Assembly: GCF_900187275.1 (NCBI RefSeq) | Contig: NZ_LT906458.1 | Span: 2,220,001-2,252,000, forward strand | Length of the DNA stretch: 32,000 nt | DNA from: Pasteurella multocida | GTDB lineage: Bacteria > Pseudomonadota > Gammaproteobacteria > Enterobacterales > Pasteurellaceae | Reading direction: 5' to 3' | Notes under the pieces: generated by a model | Database searches by the model: none | Told to the model about the DNA's origin: nothing | What the model saw: only the letters and a program-made list of their open reading frames with translations | Shown here: positions 8,810 through 23,147 of the stretch, one piece after another | How the letters are laid out: each line of letters opens with the position of its first letter | Numbering within the stretch: position 1 is the stretch's first letter | Position numbers and translations under genes: made by a program

Positions 8810-9187
8810 TTAATTTCGTAGTTCTAAGTTACGTTTAACTCTCATTATTTGTTGTATAAACGCATCATTCAACCTTTCTTTAGTTAATTGATTTTTAGGG
8901 GTGCTTGCCCATCGATAGATTTGTTCTATACTCCCGTAGCCTCTACCAAATATTTTGGCGAATTTAAGACAATTTTTTTTCGTTGCAGGTAAAGAAAGGA
9001 TCAGTTCTAATTGATGATCATTCCATGGCTGACCTTTATTAACTGGAGTTCTGTCCGTTTTATCTTTTTCTATCTCATACTCTGTTAGTATTTTTTTGAT
9101 AAAATGAATTTTTTCATCATAATTTAAGTTATCAATATTATTACTAAGTAATTCTATAAAACTATTTTTGAATTCAGACTTTTTCAT
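8810..9187 (-). CDS. hypothetical 125-aa protein inserted between hisF and hisI; possible Myb/SANT-like three-helix DNA-binding C-terminus
   Basis: ATG 9187 is preceded by TAAGGT. It is AT-rich: hand counts on 60-nt lines give 17-40% G+C, mostly about 30%. W55/F76/W93 spacing within PWNDHQLELILSL...FAKIFGRGYGSIEQIYRW resembles a Myb-type repeat. I recognise no family. Confidence 0.6.
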   Translation of the reverse strand: MKKSEFKNSFIELLSNNIDNLNYDEKIHFIKKILTEYEIEKDKTDRTPVNKGQPWNDHQLELILSLPATKKNCLKFAKIFGRGYGSIEQIYRWASTPKNQLTKERLNDAFIQQIMRVKRNLELRN

Positions 9188-10768: not shown

Positions 10769-11358
10769 TATTTAATGTTTTCCACAAAATTACGCAAAAA
10801 TAACGCGCCTGCTTTGCCTGAACGCTCAGGGTGGAATTGTGCACCATAAAAATTGTTATGTTGGATTACTGCAGAAAATGGCACGCCATAGTCGCAGGTG
10901 GCGACAGTGTGTGGATTGGGCAACACGCCGTAGCTGTGCACAAAATAGAAATAGCTGTCTTGCTCAATGCCTGCAAATAACGGGTGATCGGCGACATAAT
11001 GCACCTTATTCCAGCCCATATGCGGTAATGGCAACTGACAATCCGGTAATTTTTCGGTTTTGCCTGACATCAGTTTTAATAAGTCCAAATTGCCTTCTTC
11101 GGAATAGTCGGTCATTAATTGCATTCCCAAACAAATCCCCAAAACAGGTTGAGTTAGGCTTTGGATAACCTCAATTAAGCCTAAATCCGCCAAATTTTGC
11201 ATCGCTGCTTTTGCCGTTCCCACACCAGGTAAAATCAACTTGTCGGTGGATTGGATTTGTTCGATATTATCGGTAATTTCTGCGCGATACCCTAAGCGGT
11301 CAAAAGCAAATTTGACGGAAGAAAGGTTAGCACAGCGGGTGTTGATGATGGTGATCAT
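10768..11358 (-). CDS. hisH: imidazole glycerol phosphate synthase, glutamine amidotransferase subunit
   Basis: 196 aa. Class-I GATase triad context (GICLGMQ ... FHPERS). Confidence 0.95.
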
Positions 11359-12410
11359 TTGGAGTTTTTCTCCTTAAAATAGTCATATTTTAAGATTTTG
11401 AATGCATTATAATTTTTAGCTCTTACTGAAGCTAAGTTATGAGAAAAAGTTTCTTCCCTTTTAGTATTTATTTCTGCCTTTTGTTTTTCATTCAATGAAT
11501 TCCACCATACGGGAGAAAAAAAAGTATTTTCAAAGAATGAGAATACAAATCTAACTAAAGAATCTTCCTTTTTTTTATTTGTTCTTATATTTAAGAAAGA
11601 CTTGATAAAGTTATAGTAGAATTCATTTGCATCATCTTTAACCCACGAGAATATAATATAACCCCTGTTACTAGAGTTTATAATATTAAAAAACATCTGA
11701 TGAATTCTTATGGATGAGTTTTTTAGATCAAAAATTTTCTCATTAGAAAATGAAATGTTTGGAATAAATGTCCCACTAGATAAAATCTGAGCAGGAGAAG
11801 ATAGTTCAATTATAAATGACTCTAGTCTATTGAAATCCTTAGTTTTCCACATTGTATGCATATTAGCTTGAGTATCAATTAATTCATTAAAGCCCAAATT
11901 TGCATAACTCTCAAAAATGGAAATATTTCTTTCCCAGTATTTATATTCTTCAGAGAGTTGTTTAATCAAATTACCTCCATTTAAAATGCATTCTTTTAAT
12001 CCACTATTTTTTTGATAACCTTTGGTATAAATCTCTCTACAAAGTCCTCTATATGAAAATAAAAATATTTGTTCTAGATCAGGGATGATTTCCTCATCTT
12101 CTATCCTAGAAAATAGTAATTTATCATGTTCAGAGCAAAATCCTGTAAATGTTGAAGCGTGATTTACCCCTATTTTCCTAGGCTCCCCAAGACCATTATT
12201 TTCTATTAATTTACAAAGTGATAAATCGTTTCCCATAACTTCATTTTGTTTATCCATAATTGTTGATAAAGAACTACTTTTAGATATAGTATGAGCTTTA
12301 ATAATCTTTCTACTACATTCAATATTTAATAATTCTTTAGCACTGCAATACTTCTTTTGTCTCTTCCGTTTTAGATTTTCTTCAATAGTTCCAAGAATAT
12401 TTTTTTCCAT
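11355..12410 (-). CDS. hypothetical AT-rich protein (351 aa from ATG 12410; 368 aa if TTG 12461 is used) inserted between hisB and hisH
   Basis: A long open frame in very AT-rich DNA: hand counts give 23-30% G+C per 60-nt line, against 47% in a neighbouring hisH line. Its TGA overlaps the hisH ATG (ATGA at 11358-11355). The only pattern is near the N-terminus: C-x9-C-x7-AHTISKS and, about 45 aa later, GFCSEHDKLLF. I recognise no family. Confidence 0.7.
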   Translation of the reverse strand: MEKNILGTIEENLKRKRQKKYCSAKELLNIECSRKIIKAHTISKSSSLSTIMDKQNEVMGNDLSLCKLIENNGLGEPRKIGVNHASTFTGFCSEHDKLLFSRIEDEEIIPDLEQIFLFSYRGLCREIYTKGYQKNSGLKECILNGGNLIKQLSEEYKYWERNISIFESYANLGFNELIDTQANMHTMWKTKDFNRLESFIIELSSPAQILSSGTFIPNISFSNEKIFDLKNSSIRIHQMFFNIINSSNRGYIIFSWVKDDANEFYYNFIKSFLNIRTNKKKEDSLVRFVFSFFENTFFSPVWWNSLNEKQKAEINTKREETFSHNLASVRAKNYNAFKILKYDYFKEKNSK

Positions 12411-12504
12411 TTTTATAACTTTGCCTATGGTGTAACTATCCACGTTTTTGTCAGAACTCAAACGCTTAGTCCAACTATGGATTTCAATTATCCTTAACTT
12501 TGCT

Positions 12505-12532
12505 AATTATCAAATGCCCAAGAAATTTGCAA
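12505..12532 (-). promoter_or_regulatory. candidate sigma70 promoter for the AT-rich insert ORF
   Basis: On the minus strand, TTGCAA (12532-12527) is followed by 15 nt and GATAAT (12511-12506), or by 16 nt and ATAATT. It lies about 95 nt upstream of ATG 12410. Confidence 0.35.
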
Positions 12533-12635
12533 AATTCCAGCACACTTTTGTAATTTGGTTGTAGAGATATACTACCTAAATCATTGGATACATAAAGAAT
12601 GCCCTACAGATTACATTATGTGATATTGCTTAAAA

Positions 12636-13727
12636 TTACAGTACACCCTTACTACTAGGCATTGCATTCCCTTCCACCTTAATACACTGTCTTAACGTGC
12701 GCCCAAACACTTTAAACAGGCTTTCGATTTTGTGGTGGTCGTTATCGCCTTTGGTTTTAAGGTGCAAGGTTGCCATTAAGGTATAAGCGAGAGATTGGAA
12801 AAAATGCTCGGTCATTTCGGTGCTGAAATCGCCCACTTTGTCGCGTTTAAATTTGGCTTTGAATTTGAAATACGGGCGACCAGACAGATCCATTGTACAT
12901 TCCGCCTTGCATTCGTCCATTGGTAACACAAAGCCAAAGCGTTGAATGCCTCGTTTGTCGCCAAGGGCTTGTTTTAATGCGGTGCCGAGGGCGAGAGCCG
13001 TATCTTCGACGGTGTGATGTTCGTCGATCCAAAGATCGCCTTTACAACTTACGTTCATTCGGAAACCACCGTGGGTAGCGATTTGATCGAGCATATGATC
13101 GAAAAAGCCCACGCCTGTTTTGATGTCGTTCATGCCGGTTTCATCCAACCACACTTGCACTTTAATATCGGTTTCTTTGGTAGTACGTACTACTTCAGCA
13201 TAGCGTGGTTTACGATCAACAAGTGCGGTCTGTTTTGGCAACAATTTTTCCACAATCAGATCCCAATTGAGCTTTTCACGATCATATTGCAAGGCACGAA
13301 TACCGAGATTTTCTGCCAGTTGCACGTCAGTGGCACGATCACCAATCACAAAGCTGGTGGCAGGGTCGAACAATTTTTTATCAATGTATTTTTTCAATAA
13401 TTTAATTTTCGGCTTACGGCAATCGCATTCGTCTTCAGGTTTGTGAGGGCAAATTAACACCTCATCAAACTCGATACCTTGTGATTTAAATAACGCCATC
13501 ATCGTATTGTGCGGTTTATCAAAATTTTCCTGTGGGAAAGATGCCGTGCCTAGCCCGTCTTGGTTACTGACCATTACGAAACGGTAATAGGGTTTGAGCT
13601 TTAATAACGCGGGGATAACATTCGGCTCAAATTGTAATTTTTCTAAACTGTCGATTTGAAAATCGGTTTTTGGTTCATCAATTAAGGTACCGTCACGGTC
13701 GATAAAAAGAATGGCTTGTTGTGTCAT
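12636..13727 (-). CDS. hisB: bifunctional histidinol-phosphatase / imidazoleglycerol-phosphate dehydratase
   Basis: 363 aa from ATG 13727 ([16 protein letters not shown], the HAD DxDGT motif), with an AGGA SD upstream. The IGPD half contains ...[13 protein letters not shown]... and ...[13 protein letters not shown]. Confidence 0.95.
13221..13229 (+). repeat. USS core inside hisB
   Basis: Exact AAGTGCGGT. Confidence 0.9.
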
Positions 13728-13776
13728 AGAGTTATCCTGTTTTTTCATTTTAATCTGTTGGTTTTTTGTTAGTATC

Positions 13777-15844
<2,068 letters not shown>

Positions 15845-15859
15845 TTTACTTCCTTAGTT

Positions 15860-15879
15860 AACTGTATAAAAATACAGTT
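15860..15879. promoter_or_regulatory. LexA (SOS) box upstream of the Fic/Doc gene
   Basis: AACTGTATAAAAATACAGTT contains an exact CTGT-N8-ACAG core with an all-A/T spacer. It matches the gammaproteobacterial consensus TACTGTATATATATACAGTA at 16 of 20 positions. It is part of a perfect 10-bp-arm palindrome, TTAACTGTAT-AAAA-ATACAGTTAA (15858-15881). Confidence 0.7.
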
Positions 15880-15880
15880 A

Positions 15881-15908
15881 ATTATGCACAATTCTGCTTT
15901 CCTTGCAA
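15881..15908 (-). promoter_or_regulatory. candidate sigma70 promoter inside the hisD 3' end, reading into the Fic/Doc gene
   Basis: On the minus strand, TTGCAA (15908-15903) is followed by 16 nt and CATAAT (15886-15881). The LexA box begins immediately downstream of the -10 element. Confidence 0.5.
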
Positions 15909-17180
15909 CTTTCTCCAACGAATTTCTACTGCTTGCTTATGCGCTTCTAATTGTTCTGCTTCTGCCATTAACATCACCGTGTTAGCGAGATCTTTAAAGC
16001 CTTGTGGGGTGAGTTCTTGTACTGTCATCCGCTTGCTAAAATCGGCTAAACCTAAACTTGAATGGGTGCGAGTATAGCCGTAGGTCGGTAGAACGTGATT
16101 GGTACCACTAGCATAATCGCCCATACTTTCAGGTGAATAGGCACCTAAGAAAATCGAGCCGGCGTTATCTAAAAACGGCAGTAAGTTACGCGCATTTTCC
16201 ACCTGTACGACCAAGTGTTCAGGCGCATAAGCATTACTAATTTCTACACATTGTTGCAGATCTTCGGCGATAAAGGTGCGACTGTGAGCAAGTGCCTTAC
16301 GAGCCGTTTCTGCTCTTGGTAAACGAGCCAGTTGTTGCTCAATGGAAAGTGCGGTCTGTTTTGCCAACGTTTCACAGTTAGTGACTAAAATCACTTGGCT
16401 GTCTGCGCCATGTTCCGCTTGGGAAAGTAAATCACTGGCGACAAAATCTGGATCGGCAAATTCATCGGCAATCACTAACACTTCAGAGGGACCGGCTGGC
16501 ATATCAATCGCAGTGCCTTGTTGTAATACTTGACGTTTGGCTTCAGTGACAAAGGCATTGCCCGGACCGAAAATTTTATCCACTTTCTGCACGCTTTCCG
16601 TGCCGTTTGCCATGGCAAAAATGGCTTGAGCACCTCCAATGGCATAAATGGTTTCAACACCACATAAATTGGCGGTGTAAAGAATTTCATCGGCAATAGG
16701 TGGTGGGGAACACAGCACAATGGTTTTACAGCCAGCAATTTTGGCAGGGACGGCAAGCATTAACACTGTGGAAAACAGTGGAGCAGAGCCACCGGGGATA
16801 TATAAACCGACGTTTTGAATGGGGCGAGTAACGACTTGGCAACGCACACCGGCTTGGGTTTCCAGATCCACCGTTTGGTTTTTTTGTGCTTGGTGGAAAC
16901 GTTCAATATTGCCTTTGGCGGTTTGAATCGCTTGTTTTAATTCCGTCGCAATACGCTGGCTCGCCTGCTCAATTTGGACTTTTGAGATGACAAGGCTTTC
17001 TAATGTGGTCTTATCGAATTTTTCCGCAAGTTCAAATAATGCCTTATCCCCATTGTTGATGACATTGCTTTTGATCGCATTCACGGCTTGCGTAATTTGT
17101 TCACCAACGGCTTGAGCTGGGCGAGAAAGTGCAGCTTGTTTTTGTGCTGAATTTAACGTATTCCAAATAAGTGTTTGCAT
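15882..17180 (-). CDS. hisD: histidinol dehydrogenase
   Basis: 432 aa from ATG 17180 (MQTLIWNTL...), with an AGGAAA SD upstream; the track ORF starts at 17210. Conserved segments include ...[10 protein letters not shown]... and ...SQAEHG.... Confidence 0.95.
16347..16355 (+). repeat. USS core inside hisD
   Basis: Exact AAGTGCGGT. Confidence 0.9.
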
Positions 17181-17193
17181 ATTGTTTCCTTGA

Positions 17194-17817
17194 TTACTCA
17201 ATCGGGTCACTGATTTTGCCAGTTAAAAAGTCAAGATTACGCGTGATTTTCTCAATCTCCCAATCCCACCATTTTAATGCTAATAATTGTTCAATTTTTT
17301 CAGGTGAGAAACGTTTTCTAATCACGCGAGCGGGATTTCCTGCGACAATCGCATAAGGTGGCACATTCTTGGTGACAACCGAATTTGTGCCAATGATCGC
17401 GCCATCGCCAATTTTTACGCCTGGCATAATCGTGGCGTTATAGCCAATCCAAACGTCATTCCCAATAACCGTATCCCCTTTGCTCGATAATTCGGCTTTC
17501 TCCGGTAACGCTTTTGCCCATTCATAACCAAAAATCCCAAATGGGTAAGTGGAGATGGCATTCATTTGATGATTGGCGCCATTCATAATAAATTTCACAT
17601 CCGATCCAATCATGCAAAATTTACCGATGATCAATTTATCGCCTAAAAAGTCAAAATGGTATTTCACATTTTTCTCAAAATTTTCCACATTCTCTGCATC
17701 ATCGTAGTAGGTAAAATCCCCCACAATAATATTAGGATGACGAACTAAGTTTTTTAAAAAGCACAGTCGGTGATAATGTTTGATAGGGAAAATCTGATCT
17801 TTATCAGGAAATCGCAT
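17194..17817 (-). CDS. xenobiotic (hexapeptide-repeat) acetyltransferase of the Vat / streptogramin A acetyltransferase type
   Basis: 207 aa. It is collinear with Vat(D)/SatA-type enzymes as I recall them: ...VGDFTYYDD..., [71 protein letters not shown]....GNPA..I..RF......LL..KWWDW. Confidence 0.8.
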
Positions 17818-17841
17818 AGCATACCTAACCTTGTTGTGTTG

Positions 17842-18096
17842 TTATTTTTCTGTTGTTACATCGCATTGTGTTTTTGCCCAATTCACTGCCGTTTCTATTG
17901 CTTTACGCGCCTGCTGGCTATTACGCCAGCAAGTGGACCCTGTGAGTTCCGCCCCACGTTCTAAAATAAATGCAGGATCTGTCTTTGCAAGCTGTTTGAC
18001 ATCATCTAGCCCCATCTCTTGCAAGCGTTTGAGAATGGTGGTGCCGATGCCTTTTTGTGCTAACAGCGATTGTTGTTGTGAAAGTGTAAATGGCAT
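17842..18096 (-). CDS. small helix-hairpin-helix protein (Cdd1 / pathogenicity-locus-like family)
   Basis: 84 aa from ATG 18096; the track ORF starts at TTG 18099, 1 nt after the hisG stop. HhH signature LLAQKGIGTTILKRLQEMGLDDVKQL. It is G+C-rich relative to its surroundings (a 60-nt line hand-counted at 53%). Confidence 0.55.
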   Translation of the reverse strand: MPFTLSQQQSLLAQKGIGTTILKRLQEMGLDDVKQLAKTDPAFILERGAELTGSTCWRNSQQARKAIETAVNWAKTQCDVTTEK

Positions 18097-18100
18097 CAAG

Positions 18101-19000
18101 TTACCCCATCATTTTCTCAATTGGTAGCACTAAAATCGAACTGGCGCCAGCATCTTTCAGCTGTTCCATGGTTTCCCAGAACAGATTTTCTTGACTGACG
18201 ACATGCATAGCGACTTTCGAATTGTCGTGTGCTAATGGCAAAATAGTGGGGTTTTCCACGCCGGGTAAAAGTGCGGTGATTTCTTCCAGTTTTTCTTTTG
18301 GGGCGTGAAGCATGATGTATTTTGATTCTGCCGCTTGTTGTACACCTTGGATGCGTGTGAGTAACTTATCCACTAAGGCTTGTTTTTCTGGGCTAAGTTC
18401 AGCGGCACGTTGAATGAGGCAGGATTTTGAGCGGTAAATGATTTCCACTTCCTTTAAGCCATTAGCTTCAAGTGTTGCACCAGAAGACACTAAATCACAA
18501 ATCGCATCGGCAAGTCCGGCACGGGGCGCGACTTCCACTGATCCTGTGAGTGAACAGGTTTTAAAATCCACACCTTGTTGTTGCATATAACGTTTGAGTA
18601 AATTCGGGTAAGAGGTAGCAATACGTGCATTTTTGAGATCACTTATGCCATTGTAAGCTTCGTCTTGCGGTATGGCGATTGATAAACGGCAACCGCCAAA
18701 ATCTAAACGGCGTAATTTTTTGTAATTGACTGTTTCACCCGCAGCTTGACGAGTGAGTTCTTCCTCTTCTAAGACGTTTTCACCAATGATCCCGAGATCA
18801 ACCACACCATCAAAGACGAGACCGGGAATATCATCGTCACGCACCCGTAAAATATCAATCGGCATATTTTCAGCGTAAGCAATTAGGCGTTGTTCCTGTA
18901 AATTTATTTTTACACCGCATTGTTTCAATAAGGCTTGTGATTCTTGGCTTAAGCGTCCTGATTTTTGCATCGCAATGCGCAGTCTTTTACTTTCAATCAT
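18101..19000 (-). CDS. hisG: ATP phosphoribosyltransferase (long form)
   Basis: 299 aa. [21 protein letters not shown]... and the C-terminal regulatory domain are present. Confidence 0.95.
18269..18277 (+). repeat. USS core inside hisG
   Basis: Exact AAGTGCGGT. Confidence 0.9.
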
Positions 19001-19037
19001 AATTCTTATCCTAGTAGATGTTGTTAATTTTAGTGAT

Positions 19038-19070
19038 AAAAAAACCTCTCGAAATGGCTTCCGAGAGGTT
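19038..19070 (-). terminator. his attenuator terminator
   Basis: The minus-strand RNA AACCUCUCG-GAAGCCAUUU-CGAGAGGUU is followed by a U run that continues the stem. It lies between hisL and hisG, 38 nt upstream of the hisG ATG. Confidence 0.85.
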
Positions 19071-19145
19071 TATATTGTTCGTCATTTTATCGCACACTCG
19101 GAAGATTTGTTATCTTCCAAGCATCACAAAATACCCGAAAGATAA
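19071..19145 (-). promoter_or_regulatory. his leader alternative (anti-terminator / pause) structures
   Basis: Hairpin GGAAGAU-AACAA-AUCUUCC at 19118-19100. The CUUCCGAG segment (19104-19097) is complementary to CUCGGAAG in the 5' arm of the terminator (19065-19058). GUGAUG is complementary to the CAUCAC His codons. Confidence 0.7.
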
Positions 19146-19187
19146 TCAGGGTAGATGGTGATGATGAGTCATGCGAGTAAAAATCAT
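19146..19187 (-). CDS. hisL: his operon leader peptide (13 aa, MIFTRMTHHHHLP)
   Basis: ATG ATT TTT ACT CGC ATG ACT CAT CAT CAC CAT CTA CCC TGA, with an AAGGA SD 7 nt upstream. It has four consecutive His codons and is followed by the attenuator structures. Confidence 0.85.
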   Translation of the reverse strand: MIFTRMTHHHHLP

Positions 19188-19216
19188 AGCGTTTCCTTAT
19201 TGGTCAATTGCTATTC

Positions 19217-19245
19217 AAATTACTGTAAAAAAAATAAACTGGCAA
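19217..19245 (-). promoter_or_regulatory. candidate his operon promoter
   Basis: On the minus strand, TTGCCA (19245-19240) is followed by 17 nt and TAATTT (19222-19217). It lies about 30 nt upstream of the hisL ATG. Confidence 0.5.
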
Positions 19246-19263
19246 GGATTTTTTACAAAAAAT

Positions 19264-20019
19264 TTATATTTTTTTTGCTTTAATAAATAACAGCACAGGG
19301 CGGTGCTGTAAATCTTTAAATTCCTGTTGCCATTCTGGTTGATCGGCAAGCATGGGTTCTGCCATCTGCTCAATCTGAAAACCGGCTTGAATCAGTTGAT
19401 TGACAATCGTTGCCGTAGTGCGATGATAGGTTTTAAACGGTTGTTTAAACCAATTACGCTCACGTTCACCTTCATCACGATAATAGTTCAACCGATATGC
19501 CACTTGGCGTTTGTGTTGATCTTTTTCCCAACGATCTCCTTCTTGATAGCAGGTGACGATCGGATGTTCTTGCGAGAAAATCAGATAACCATTAGGGGTG
19601 AGTTTTTGGCGAATATCTTGCAGTAACTTGGCAAAATCTTGCACATAATGAAAAGCAAAAGAGCTGGTGATGACATCAAAATTACTTTCTGGTAAATCCG
19701 CCAGTTGCTCCATGGACAATGGGTGGAGGGCAAAGTGCGGTCCATTTTGAAAATGTTTTGATAGATCATGCTCAGCTTGCTTCAACATGTTATGAGAAAG
19801 GTCAATGCCCACGACAAAGCGGGCATGACGTTGCAAATACAGCAGTAGATGACTACCGGTGCCACACCCCAGATCGAGCAATTTTTTATTGGTCAGATCG
19901 GGGAGCAAAGACAACATGGTCGGTTTTTCTACCACTTCATTTAAGCTGAGGGGATTTTCCCGCAATTTTTGATACAACTCGAAAAATTGCGGGGCATCAT
20001 AGACGCTTTTTTTCGTCAT
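19264..20019 (-). CDS. class I SAM-dependent methyltransferase
   Basis: 251 aa from ATG 20019 (MTKKSVYDAPQFFELYQKL), 1 nt after the ushA stop; alternative in-frame ATGs are at 20040 and 20064. SAM motif LLDLGCGTG. Confidence 0.8.
   Translation of the reverse strand: MTKKSVYDAPQFFELYQKLRENPLSLNEVVEKPTMLSLLPDLTNKKLLDLGCGTGSHLLLYLQRHARFVVGIDLSHNMLKQAEHDLSKHFQNGPHFALHPLSMEQLADLPESNFDVITSSFAFHYVQDFAKLLQDIRQKLTPNGYLIFSQEHPIVTCYQEGDRWEKDQHKRQVAYRLNYYRDEGERERNWFKQPFKTYHRTTATIVNQLIQAGFQIEQMAEPMLADQPEWQQEFKDLQHRPVLLFIKAKKI
19733..19741 (+). repeat. USS core inside the methyltransferase gene
   Basis: Exact AAGTGCGGT. Confidence 0.9.
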
Positions 20020-20020
20020 C

Positions 20021-21670
20021 TTATTTGAAGATGATGTCATCTTTTGGATCGTATTTAGACGCATCTAACACTTTGTTTTCTTCAAAGTATTTTTTCAGCA
20101 TCTCCGCATCGATAAAACCCGTATTGACATAACTTGGGTGTTTTTTCAAGACAGGATAGCCATCACCACCACCGGCGCAATAGTCTGGTACAGATACTTT
20201 ATAGGTTTTGTTTAAATTCAGTGCTTTGCCACCGACTTTGACATCCGATACTTTTTGTGCGGTACGGTCCACTACCATGGAAAGCCCAGCAAATTGTGGG
20301 TAAGCACCGCTATCTACTTGTTTTAATGCCACCACATTGAGGTAGTCTAATAGCTCTTGCCCCGTGAAATCGACAGTGGCAATCATATTACCGAAAGGTT
20401 GTACGGTAAGGAGATCTTTATATGTCGTTTCTCCTTCGTTGATGTCGGTACGAATCCCGCCTGAGTTCATGATCCCCACATCCGCTTTCACACGCTCCAT
20501 TTGTGACTGAGCAATTAAACGTCCTAAGTTCGTTTGGTGGAAACGGATAATTTTACGATCACCGATAAATTTCCCTTTTACTTCCCCCACTTTCACGCCT
20601 AATAAACGATCGCCTTCGTCTTGGTATTTCTTCAAATGGGCAAAGACGGCTGGATCTTCAGCAATTTCAGGCTGATACAGTTTGTATTCTGATTTGCCGT
20701 CTTCCAATTTGATTTTTTGTTTTAAGTTAATTGGAATTAACTCGTATTTCACCAATTTAGTTTCGCCATTTTTGAATTCAAAATCTGCACGACCAATGTA
20801 TTTTCCCCATTCGCCCGCTTGGACAATCCAAGTGCCGTTTTGGAAATCAGGTTTACATGCTTCACCCGGCGTGTATTTCAGTTTGAATTGACCTTGTTCA
20901 TCAATACACACCGTGTCGTGTGTATGACCACCGATAATTAAATCAAATGCGCCTTTATCTAGAGTACGTGCCATGGTGACATCGCCCGGTGCATTATGTC
21001 CGTGTTTACCATCAAAATAGTAGCCCATGTGGGTTAACGCAATACGGATATCCGGTTTTTCGGTTTGGTTAATTTCAGCCAAGGTGTTTTTGGCGGTTTC
21101 AATCGGGTTGTTAAAGATCACGTGATCAACCACATCAGGATTACCTAATTTAGCGGTATCTTCTGTGGTCAAACCAACGACAGCAATTTTGACATCCTCT
21201 TTGTTTAGTATCACATAAGGTTTGACTAAAGGTTTGTTGGTTTTTTTATTGATGACGTTAGCTGAAATGAGGGGGAACTTCGCCCATTTTTCTTGCATTT
21301 CAAGCAATTGCATCGGGAAATCGAATTCATGGTTACCGAGTACTGCTACGTCATAACCAATCATGTTCATACCCTCGATATCAGGTTTCGCATTTTGCAT
21401 ATCAGATTCAGGCACGCCTGTGTTGAAATCACCTGCATGCAGCAAAATCACTGAGCCACCTTTGCCTTCGACTTCTTTACGAATGTTATCAATTAAAGTT
21501 TTATGTGCAGCAAAACCATACTCGCCGTGACTGTTTTTCCAGAAATGACCGTGTGTGTCGTTGGCATGTAATACCGTAATATTGTAGGTTTTGTCTTGGG
21601 TATAAGCGTAAGCTTGACTGATTAACCCTAATGACAGGGCGATTGCACTCAATTTTGTTAATTTTTTCAT
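20021..21670 (-). CDS. ushA: periplasmic bifunctional UDP-sugar hydrolase / 5'-nucleotidase
   Basis: 549 aa from ATG 21670, with an AAGAGG SD upstream. Signal peptide MKKLTKLSAIALSLGLISQAYA. Collinear with E. coli UshA (YTQDKTYNITVLHANDTHGHFW..., GNHEFD, ...GAYPQFAG..., ...GGDGYP...GYVNTGFIDAE). Confidence 0.85.
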   Translation of the reverse strand: MKKLTKLSAIALSLGLISQAYAYTQDKTYNITVLHANDTHGHFWKNSHGEYGFAAHKTLIDNIRKEVEGKGGSVILLHAGDFNTGVPESDMQNAKPDIEGMNMIGYDVAVLGNHEFDFPMQLLEMQEKWAKFPLISANVINKKTNKPLVKPYVILNKEDVKIAVVGLTTEDTAKLGNPDVVDHVIFNNPIETAKNTLAEINQTEKPDIRIALTHMGYYFDGKHGHNAPGDVTMARTLDKGAFDLIIGGHTHDTVCIDEQGQFKLKYTPGEACKPDFQNGTWIVQAGEWGKYIGRADFEFKNGETKLVKYELIPINLKQKIKLEDGKSEYKLYQPEIAEDPAVFAHLKKYQDEGDRLLGVKVGEVKGKFIGDRKIIRFHQTNLGRLIAQSQMERVKADVGIMNSGGIRTDINEGETTYKDLLTVQPFGNMIATVDFTGQELLDYLNVVALKQVDSGAYPQFAGLSMVVDRTAQKVSDVKVGGKALNLNKTYKVSVPDYCAGGGDGYPVLKKHPSYVNTGFIDAEMLKKYFEENKVLDASKYDPKDDIIFK

Positions 21671-23086: not shown

Positions 23087-23147
23087 TGGATTTTTGTTAA
23101 ACAACGCAATTATTTTGGGCGTCTGTTGAGATGAACAGGGCGATATC

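Follow-up and report, generated by a model that had tools for sequence, protein, structure and literature searches.

A candidate LexA-repressed promoter for a Doc-type gene inside the histidine operon of Pasteurella multocida

Introduction

Why should a gene for a Doc-type enzyme, set among the genes of a histidine biosynthesis operon, be preceded by what appears to be a binding site for the SOS repressor LexA? The question is raised by a 32-kb stretch of the Pasteurella multocida genome (NZ_LT906458.1, positions 2,220,001 to 2,252,000), which we refer to throughout as the window and whose coordinates are counted from its first base. The window, which is 95–99% identical to P. multocida strain CIRMBP-0884, carries the his operon on its minus strand in the order leader, hisG, an 84-amino-acid (aa) open reading frame (ORF), a Vat-type acetyltransferase gene, hisD, a RhuM-N/Fic-Doc gene (hereafter fic), hisC, hisB, an ORF of approximately 350 aa, hisH, hisA, hisF, a 125-aa ORF, and hisIE. 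An earlier note on this DNA, made from the sequence alone, had described a LexA box and a dedicated promoter directly upstream of fic. On the evidence assembled here, we consider it likely that the site is a LexA-repressed promoter serving the Doc-type gene, and very probable that DNA damage turns this gene on.

A near-consensus LexA box in the hisD–fic spacer

On the minus strand, the hisD stop codon (15882–15884) and the fic ATG (15842–15844) are separated by a spacer of 37 nucleotides (nt; 15845–15881). Within this spacer, both direct reading of the sequence and scoring with a position weight matrix identify the 20-mer AACTGTATAAAAATACAGTT (15860–15879) as a LexA (SOS) box, with a CTGT-N8-ACAG core (15862–15877) whose internal spacer consists entirely of A and T. 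The box agrees with the consensus TACTGTATATATATACAGTA at 16 of 20 positions, which is why a search for TACTGTATATATATACAGTA with up to three mismatches came back empty. It is enclosed by the perfect palindrome TTAACTGTAT-AAAA-ATACAGTTAA, with 10-bp arms around a 4-nt center (15858–15881). The box, core, palindrome, and 37-nt spacer reported in the earlier note were all recovered base for base at the positions that it gave, and its count of 16 agreements with the gammaproteobacterial SOS box proved right on recounting.

For quantitative scoring, we used a symmetrised LexA weight matrix composed of 25 E. coli boxes from the literature, among which the dinD box alone was verified against the genome (NC_000913.3). 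The window box scores 22.7 bits on this matrix, toward the top of the 12.8–24.8 bits spanned by its 25 training sites. The second-best site in the window, at 11.3 bits, lies 11 bits below it; the earlier note, by eye, had seen no box as good in the other intergenic regions that it inspected. Across 300 shuffles of the window, the best match per shuffle averaged 11.95 bits and never exceeded 20.2, and the CTGT-N8-ACAG core is seen twice in the 32 kb against an expectation of 0.24. On these figures, a chance origin of the box can be excluded. Other P. multocida assemblies carry the box either unchanged or with one change in its flank. The remaining CTGT-N8-ACAG of the window, CTGTTGAGATGAACAG (23123–23138, in the divergent mtr–ppa intergenic region), scores 6.0 bits and was rejected as a LexA site; it probably arose by chance.

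A natural standard of comparison is provided by the lexA gene of the same species, which adjoins plsB in P. multocida NZ_CP020346.1, approximately 2 kb past the window's right end. The lexA promoter (TTGCAA-16-TATAAT) contains two boxes at a spacing of 21 bp, CTGTATATAATAACAG (16.2 bits) and CTGTATAAAAAAACAG (14.9 bits), and the core of the window box differs from the second of these by one base. The earlier note had proposed scoring the site with a Pasteurellaceae matrix alongside the SOS boxes of the same genome; on our matrix, which is E. coli-based, the fic site is a better LexA box than the autoregulatory lexA operators of P. multocida. The P. multocida LexA protein is 73% identical to that of E. 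coli, with the block containing the DNA-binding helix-turn-helix identical between the two. A functioning SOS response has been reported for the species under enrofloxacin, with lexA induced 9.9-fold and impA, recA, recN, recX, and uvrD also induced (PMC2966327), and a further study likewise describes an active SOS response under this drug (PMC12883784). P. multocida was not among the matches listed for E. coli RecA in a plasmid collection.

A promoter-like element overlapping the end of hisD

A promoter scan places a −35-like hexamer, TTGCAA, in the last hisD codons (K-L-Q; 15903–15908, minus strand) and a −10-like hexamer, CATAAT, across the hisD stop codon (15881–15886, minus strand), with 16 nt between them. 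The start of the box lies 2 nt past the −10 hexamer, and a Shine-Dalgarno sequence for fic, AAGGAAG, follows at 15849–15855 (minus strand). The hisD gene itself (15882–17180, minus strand; start taken from the 432-aa gene call of identical assemblies) thus holds the −35 hexamer in its 3′ end and overlaps the −10. The TTGCAA-16-CATAAT arrangement that the earlier note had placed just upstream of the box on the coding strand is present as described, and is not significant by itself.

The match gains weight because the hexamers are conserved in Avibacterium, whose HisD is 76% identical to that of the window: TTGCAA is kept and the −10 reads AATAAT, both at the same positions, even though the spacer between them has another sequence and a length that is not the same but off by one base. 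In the other loci that carry a box, a −10-like hexamer lies 2–9 nt upstream of it. TTGCAA is also the −35 hexamer of the P. multocida lexA promoter, and it is missing from the P. multocida allele that lacks fic.

Conservation of the box upstream of fic homologues

We scanned homologous loci taken from one genome per species (80 loci, amounting to 564 kb) with the same matrix. In these 564 kb, no site of at least 14 bits lies anywhere but in the lexA promoter or ahead of a fic homologue; in approximately 840 kb of related DNA, genomic and metagenomic together, every site of at least 16 bits is likewise either upstream of a fic homologue or in the lexA promoter. Those next to homologues belong to seven species of Pasteurellaceae, P. 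multocida among them, and to four environmental contigs. Boxes were found in Avibacterium endocarditidis (locus L033, 22.3 bits), Avibacterium paragallinarum (L015, 19.4 bits), Actinobacillus indolicus (L007, 20.0 bits), an Actinobacillus metagenome-assembled genome (MAG) with tandem boxes 20 bp apart (L020, 20.8 and 16.0 bits), Glaesserella australis (L065, 18.1 bits), a Pasteurellaceae MAG (L003, 16.2 bits), and Rodentibacter abscessus, where the box precedes a Bro-N ORF that is in turn followed by fic (L013, 18.4 bits), in addition to P. multocida itself (L084–87, 21.9–22.7 bits). When the upstream regions are aligned, CTG, CAG, and the A/T positions adjacent to them are invariant, and the spacers and flanks vary. 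The distance from the box core to the ATG is 33–35 nt in six of the eight box-bearing Pasteurellaceae loci and 46–47 nt in the other two (L007 and L020).

The location of the gene is shared as well as its box. A fic homologue occupies the hisD–hisC gap, or stands immediately before hisC, in Bisgaard taxon 45, Pasteurella sp. PK-2025, Lonepinella, Necropsobacter, and P. langaaensis, and the same hisD/hisC placement is found in Avibacterium (two species), Mannheimia (two species, one of them with a remnant), and Testudinibacter (a remnant). At this junction, the fic product shows 67–84% identity, and because this divergence parallels that of HisD and HisC (74–95% identity), it suggests that the association of fic with the his operon is old. 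The box-bearing loci are dispersed over the fic tree, for which the simplest reading is an ancestral unit of promoter, operator, and gene that has repeatedly been lost. The promoter, operator, ribosome-binding site, and gene would together form an old unit common to other Pasteurellaceae.

The same unit, with a different leader, appears to be present in other gammaproteobacteria. Our scan of metagenomic homologues covered 80 loci and 275 kb (66–75% identity; 51–56% GC) and yielded five sites of at least 12 bits, four of which (20.1–22.1 bits) sit 158–189 nt upstream of fic homologues. These four boxes stand ahead of a common leader of approximately 170 nt, in at least three different genomic flanks. 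Homologues in Nitrosomonas and Marinobacter (48–75% identical) are located between hsdS and hsdR of type I restriction–modification (R-M) systems. A Firmicutes-type box (GAAC-N4-GTTC) was not convincingly placed in any of the non-proteobacterial loci that were fetched, and the Firmicutes loci among them had no such box.

Weighing the alternatives

Several observations count against a LexA-repressed promoter at this site. The promoter hexamers agree at 9 of 12 positions, which taken alone is not above chance (13 promoter-like matches in the region, against 8.9 expected). Of the matrix sites, only the dinD box was verified, and this box is itself nearly identical to the window site, with slight inflation of the score. 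Most homologues lack a box, including the his-operon copies of Bisgaard taxon 45, P. langaaensis, and Mannheimia, and in Necropsobacter the box has decayed, with only AGTTAACTCAGG left at the homologous position. Read-through from the his promoter also transcribes fic, so the contribution of LexA would be limited to an additional SOS input, except if it works as a roadblock too. Because so many homologues, some of them within his operons, lack the box, SOS control would be common in the RhuM-N/Doc family without being obligatory.

The alternative that survives best, although we consider it unlikely, is a genuine LexA site without a promoter of its own: either a relic of the cassette's former free-standing promoter, or a roadblock that holds back his read-through into fic and hisC–hisIE until the SOS response is triggered. 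In its favor, the hexamers are of modest quality, the surrounding operon already supplies transcription, and the decay of the Necropsobacter box at the same position shows that the element can be dispensable. Against it stand the retention of TTGCAA and of the −10 hexamer in Avibacterium despite a diverged spacer, the absence of TTGCAA from the fic-less allele, and the −10-like hexamer that accompanies the box in the other box-bearing loci.

That a repressor other than LexA uses the palindrome as its operator, for instance the gene's own winged-helix-like N-terminal domain in an autoregulatory arrangement, strikes us as quite improbable. Autoregulation through palindromes is usual for type II toxin loci, and residues 30–100 of our structural model fold as helix-helix-beta-hairpin; at low confidence, however, this model is too poor to carry a claim of DNA binding. 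The conserved positions are exactly the LexA half-sites CTG and CAG, with the spacers free to change, the 20-bp spacing of the tandem boxes in the Actinobacillus MAG is close to the 21 bp of the lexA promoter, and no other palindrome is common to the loci that lack a LexA box. Least credible of all is an AT-rich palindrome that arose by chance, or an RNA hairpin with a role in termination or in the processing or stability of the mRNA: the genome is rich in A and T (41% GC) and the palindrome could form an RNA hairpin of −12.2 kcal/mol (z-score −2.5), but that hairpin has no T tail, the palindrome has no Rfam match, the hairpin is not conserved in homologous loci (its potential is gone in Avibacterium and in L003, where the CTG/CAG half-sites alone persist), the matrix score lies above all 300 shuffles, and comparable sites in the ~840 kb are exclusive to fic homologues and lexA.

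Predicted consequences for fic and the distal his genes

If, as we favor, the site is a LexA-repressed promoter, then the chain of events that we infer, from LexA binding and the transcription start through induction and his co-induction to the biochemical target of the product, would run as follows. In undamaged cells, a LexA dimer on 15860–15879, directly downstream of the −10 hexamer, would occlude RNA polymerase. DNA damage, or another trigger of RecA filament formation, would lead to LexA self-cleavage, whereupon the promoter would fire and the Doc-type kinase would be produced. The distal genes hisC, hisB, and onward to hisIE would probably be co-transcribed, adding to the attenuator-controlled transcription that proceeds from hisG. 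Such co-induction is expected because no terminator-like structure was found on the minus strand between fic and hisIE, and because hisC (13777–14832, minus strand), which would be the first gene to share transcripts starting at the internal promoter, begins 13 nt past the end of fic. Control of the operon is exerted primarily by its his leader/attenuator (19035–19164, minus strand), which matches Rfam RF00514 at 74.3 bits and encodes the leader peptide MIFTRMTHHHHLP*.

The candidate LexA-controlled gene encodes a RhuM-N/Doc protein

The gene under this predicted control, fic (14846–15844, minus strand), encodes a 332-aa protein in which Pfam, TIGR01550, and PADLOC profiles all find matches. 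Pfam PF13310 (RhuM) matches residues 62–132 (E = 1e-28) and does so only over profile positions 2–72 of 252, and PF02661 (Fic) matches residues 200–280 (E = 7.7e-14); the rest of RhuM appears to be replaced by a Doc domain. The match to TIGR01550 (DOC_P1), at 38.8 bits, is barely above the cutoff of 38.65. The motif H262-PFADGNKR-270 fits the Doc signature HxFx(D/N)(A/G)NKR in its Doc (kinase) variant and is invariant in 20 homologues. Over its full length (residues 1–329 on profile positions 1–330 of 331, E = 1.2e-175), the protein matches PADLOC PDC-S23 (PDLC04964), a single-gene phage-defense candidate on which we found no paper.

No antitoxin gene stands beside fic. The gaps of 37 nt toward hisD and 13 nt toward hisC are too short for a phd-like gene, and the locus is therefore not a Phd-Doc pair; the N-terminal domain may take over the regulatory role. 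By analogy with P1 Doc, the protein is likely to phosphorylate a translation factor, leading to growth arrest or abortive infection. RhuM-DOC fusions have been proposed to act as toxins within multi-layer R-M defense loci (Anantharaman et al. 2013, PMC3710099), and BifA, a streptococcal RhuM-Fic protein, is reported to promote phosphorylation of host moesin (PMC6529018). The sequence is unusually conserved, with 75% identity to proteins of Marinobacter, Halomonas, and Cellvibrio. An AlphaFold2 model, calculated from a shallow alignment of 20 sequences that are 74–88% identical, is poor (predicted local distance difference test [pLDDT] score of 48), and we draw no conclusion from the winged-helix-like arrangement that it shows at low confidence. 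A sequence search of the PDB gave no match at E < 0.01. No relative was found in viral contigs, so the gene is not evidently phage-borne.

Relation to known systems

Close known counterparts of the window site are the gammaproteobacterial SOS boxes, among them the two operators of P. multocida lexA and the E. coli dinD box, AACTGTATATAAATACAGTT (NC_000913.3), which differs from it by one base and has the same 20-bp CTGT-N8-ACAG palindrome with an AT-rich spacer. The site would occupy the −10/+1 region of a predicted sigma-70 promoter, whose −35 hexamer, TTGCAA, is also that of P. multocida lexA. Unlike the dinD and lexA operators, it lies in a biosynthetic operon, with its promoter partly inside hisD, and stands before an accessory gene rather than a repair gene.

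Toxins silenced by LexA and released upon DNA damage are familiar from E. coli, where they include tisB, symE, hokE, and the dinB-yafNOP operon. These toxins are membrane peptides or RNases paired with RNA or protein antitoxins, whereas the window gene specifies a 332-aa Doc-type enzyme of the Fic fold without a separate antitoxin gene. Secondary promoters within his operons also have precedent: the enterobacterial internal promoters P2 and P3, located in hisC and hisF, are weak and constitutive and transcribe the distal genes independently of the attenuator. The element described here would resemble them as a secondary promoter inside a his operon, but differs in arriving with an inserted gene and a LexA operator. 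With P1 Phd-Doc the protein shares a Fic-fold catalytic domain bearing the Doc signature; it differs in the lack of phd, in an extra RhuM-type N-terminal region of 190 aa, and in its proposed regulator, LexA in place of Phd/Doc. It also resembles PDC-S23 and the RhuM-DOC proteins of type I R-M operons (PMC3710099), as judged from the full-length profile match, but unlike the latter has no R-M genes nearby.

A regulatory precedent is a rhuM/death-on-curing gene of gut Firmicutes, whose upstream LexA box was bound by B. subtilis LexA in an electrophoretic mobility shift assay (EMSA; Cornish et al. 2014, PMC3998124). There, a gene of the same protein family (COG3943, RhuM, death-on-curing) is likewise paired with a LexA site; the cases differ in that the motif is of the Firmicutes type (TCGAACAAATGTTCGA), is located at −96, and was found on a metagenomic scaffold and not in a his operon. 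An SOS-controlled Doc-type enzyme within an amino-acid operon had been called unusual in the earlier note. That word should be softened: the pairing of LexA with rhuM has the EMSA precedent (PMC3998124), and residence between hisD and hisC extends over many Pasteurellaceae genera. LexA boxes, SOS-induced toxins, and one in vitro link between LexA and rhuM are already known. A limited literature search, in which fic of the Pasteurella his operon was the subject of no paper, leaves as apparently undescribed the way the LexA link is conserved in Pasteurellaceae and in further gammaproteobacteria, the long residence of the gene between hisD and hisC, and the implied SOS input into hisC–hisIE.

Should this reading hold, it would add to the SOS response an accessory Doc-type enzyme found in well over a thousand assemblies of P. 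multocida, and it would provide a rare example of an SOS promoter within an amino-acid operon. The repeated pairing of a LexA box with the RhuM-N/Doc family, spanning Pasteurellaceae, other gammaproteobacteria, and, through the literature, Firmicutes, would tie a phage-defense candidate to DNA damage. It also suggests when activity of the protein should be sought, namely after fluoroquinolones, mitomycin C, or prophage induction, with relevance to the fluoroquinolone treatment of pasteurellosis and to persistence. More tentatively, and with considerable doubt, RhuM-N/Doc (PDC-S23) might be seen as a cassette of one gene that, where it stands free, has been placed under stress regulators throughout the gammaproteobacteria (LexA in many lineages, a CRP-S/Sxy-like competence site in several Pasteurellaceae), and whose product serves as a kinase for a checkpoint or for abortive infection, with DNA damage or DNA uptake as the gate; in P. 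multocida, hisC–hisIE would then be inducible by DNA damage, with LexA perhaps throttling his read-through. If so, the SOS response would be coupled to histidine biosynthesis and to translation.

Presence/absence polymorphism of fic in P. multocida

Comparison with NZ_CP020346.1 by blastn shows that fic belongs to a 1,076-nt segment (14834–15909, minus strand) that is replaced by 17 nt in fic-less P. multocida. The segment contains a new hisD C-terminus that encodes the −35 hexamer, followed by the −10 hexamer, the box, the ribosome-binding site, and fic. In the fic-less strain CIRMBP-0884, hisD ends ...AIRLEKLTQE* and hisC begins 3 nt after it. The hisD–hisG side (15910–21300) is 99.1% identical to the fic-less reference and the hisC–hisB side (12643–14833) 95.1%, an inequality that points to two recombining haplotypes and a mosaic around the polymorphism. 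The exact fic protein occurs in 452 blocks of the assembly collection, and near-identical variants in more than 1,200 contigs labeled P. multocida. In a second allele, whose protein is 87–88% identical, the box is unchanged; the promoter spacer carries one substitution, and another lies immediately past the box. The 20 nt that precede the ATG of fic, CAGTTAACTAAGGAAGTAAAATG (window 15842–15866, compared with L001:3984–4007), resemble both the fic-less hisD–hisC junction, AAATTAACTCAGGAGTAAGTCATG, and the region before fic in Necropsobacter, and short repeats of this kind at the junctions may have allowed the gene to be lost or gained.

Further features of the his operon and of fic homologues

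Besides fic, the window's his operon contains other genes without a role in histidine synthesis by name: an 84-aa ORF and a Vat-family streptogramin acetyltransferase gene in the hisG–hisD gap (17194–18099), a strain-variable cassette between hisB and hisH (11355–12642) whose product is approximately 350 aa in the window and 220, 177, 146, or 128 aa elsewhere, and a 125-aa ORF between hisF and hisIE (8810–9187). The ORFs of unassigned function in the operon gave no Pfam or PADLOC match. The hisD–hisC gap is a hotspot for cargo in other genera as well, with GFA-family and histidine-phosphatase-family genes joining fic in Bisgaard taxon 45 (L002:2035–3001). Genes for GNAT acetyltransferases adjoin fic in P. 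langaaensis (L014:2579–2980) and Mannheimia (L012:4005–4445).

Homologues also occur inside other operons, in the era–recO gap of the Pasteurellaceae MAG (L003, 2898–3998), at the thi locus of Rodentibacter abscessus (L013), and, in Gallibacterium salpingitidis (L091:2754–4012), between the gene for the acetolactate synthase small subunit (ilvM/N) and ilvD/ilvA. Further copies stand at unrelated sites. Within operons, the gene seems to settle in the gaps between neighboring genes and to keep the sense orientation every time. In Mannheimia glucosida (L012:2836–3003), fic comes first after the his leader peptide MNLNYTLHHHHTLT* and the attenuator terminator, with a GNAT gene, hisC, and hisB behind it. 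Because it directly follows the his leader and attenuator, this copy, which has no LexA box, would be under histidine attenuation.

In Rodentibacter (L013:2474–2953; L094:2698–3585), the LexA box is followed by a 138-aa ORF with a Bro-N domain and then by fic. DinD of E. coli is likewise a Bro-N protein, and its SOS box is the one almost identical to the window site; there may thus be a recurring SOS-controlled Bro-N module. The leader of approximately 170 nt that separates box and fic on environmental gammaproteobacterial contigs (L115:1330–1500, L116, L128, and L155) starts with a GTTAAG-GTTTA-CTTAAC hairpin overlapping a five-codon mini-ORF (MLRFT*). It has no Rfam match and may represent a regulatory RNA or a leader.

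Some homologues are accompanied by a second kind of site. Sequences such as TTTGCGATCTAGATCGTAAAA and TTTTGTGATCTGCGTCGAAAAA, which resemble the CRP-S site of Sxy-dependent competence (consensus TGCGA-N6-TCGCA), are found approximately 90–215 nt upstream of fic homologues at L013:2444–2463, L020:886–905, L065:2895–2914, L092:2785–2804, and L103:1411–1430. The pattern TG[CT]GA-N6-TCG[CTA]A occurs eight times in 919 kb, five of them upstream of fic. In L013 and L065, the center of the CRP-S-like site lies, by eye, 47 nt before a TATAAT, with the LexA box adjacent. These arrangements suggest dual control by competence and SOS in some species; the window contains no CRP-S-like site. In Aggregatibacter (L004, L010, and L011), a Hin-type DNA uptake signal, AAGTGCGGT, is located approximately 80 nt upstream of a fic homologue that has no box, and such uptake signals are consistent with a spread of fic by natural transformation.

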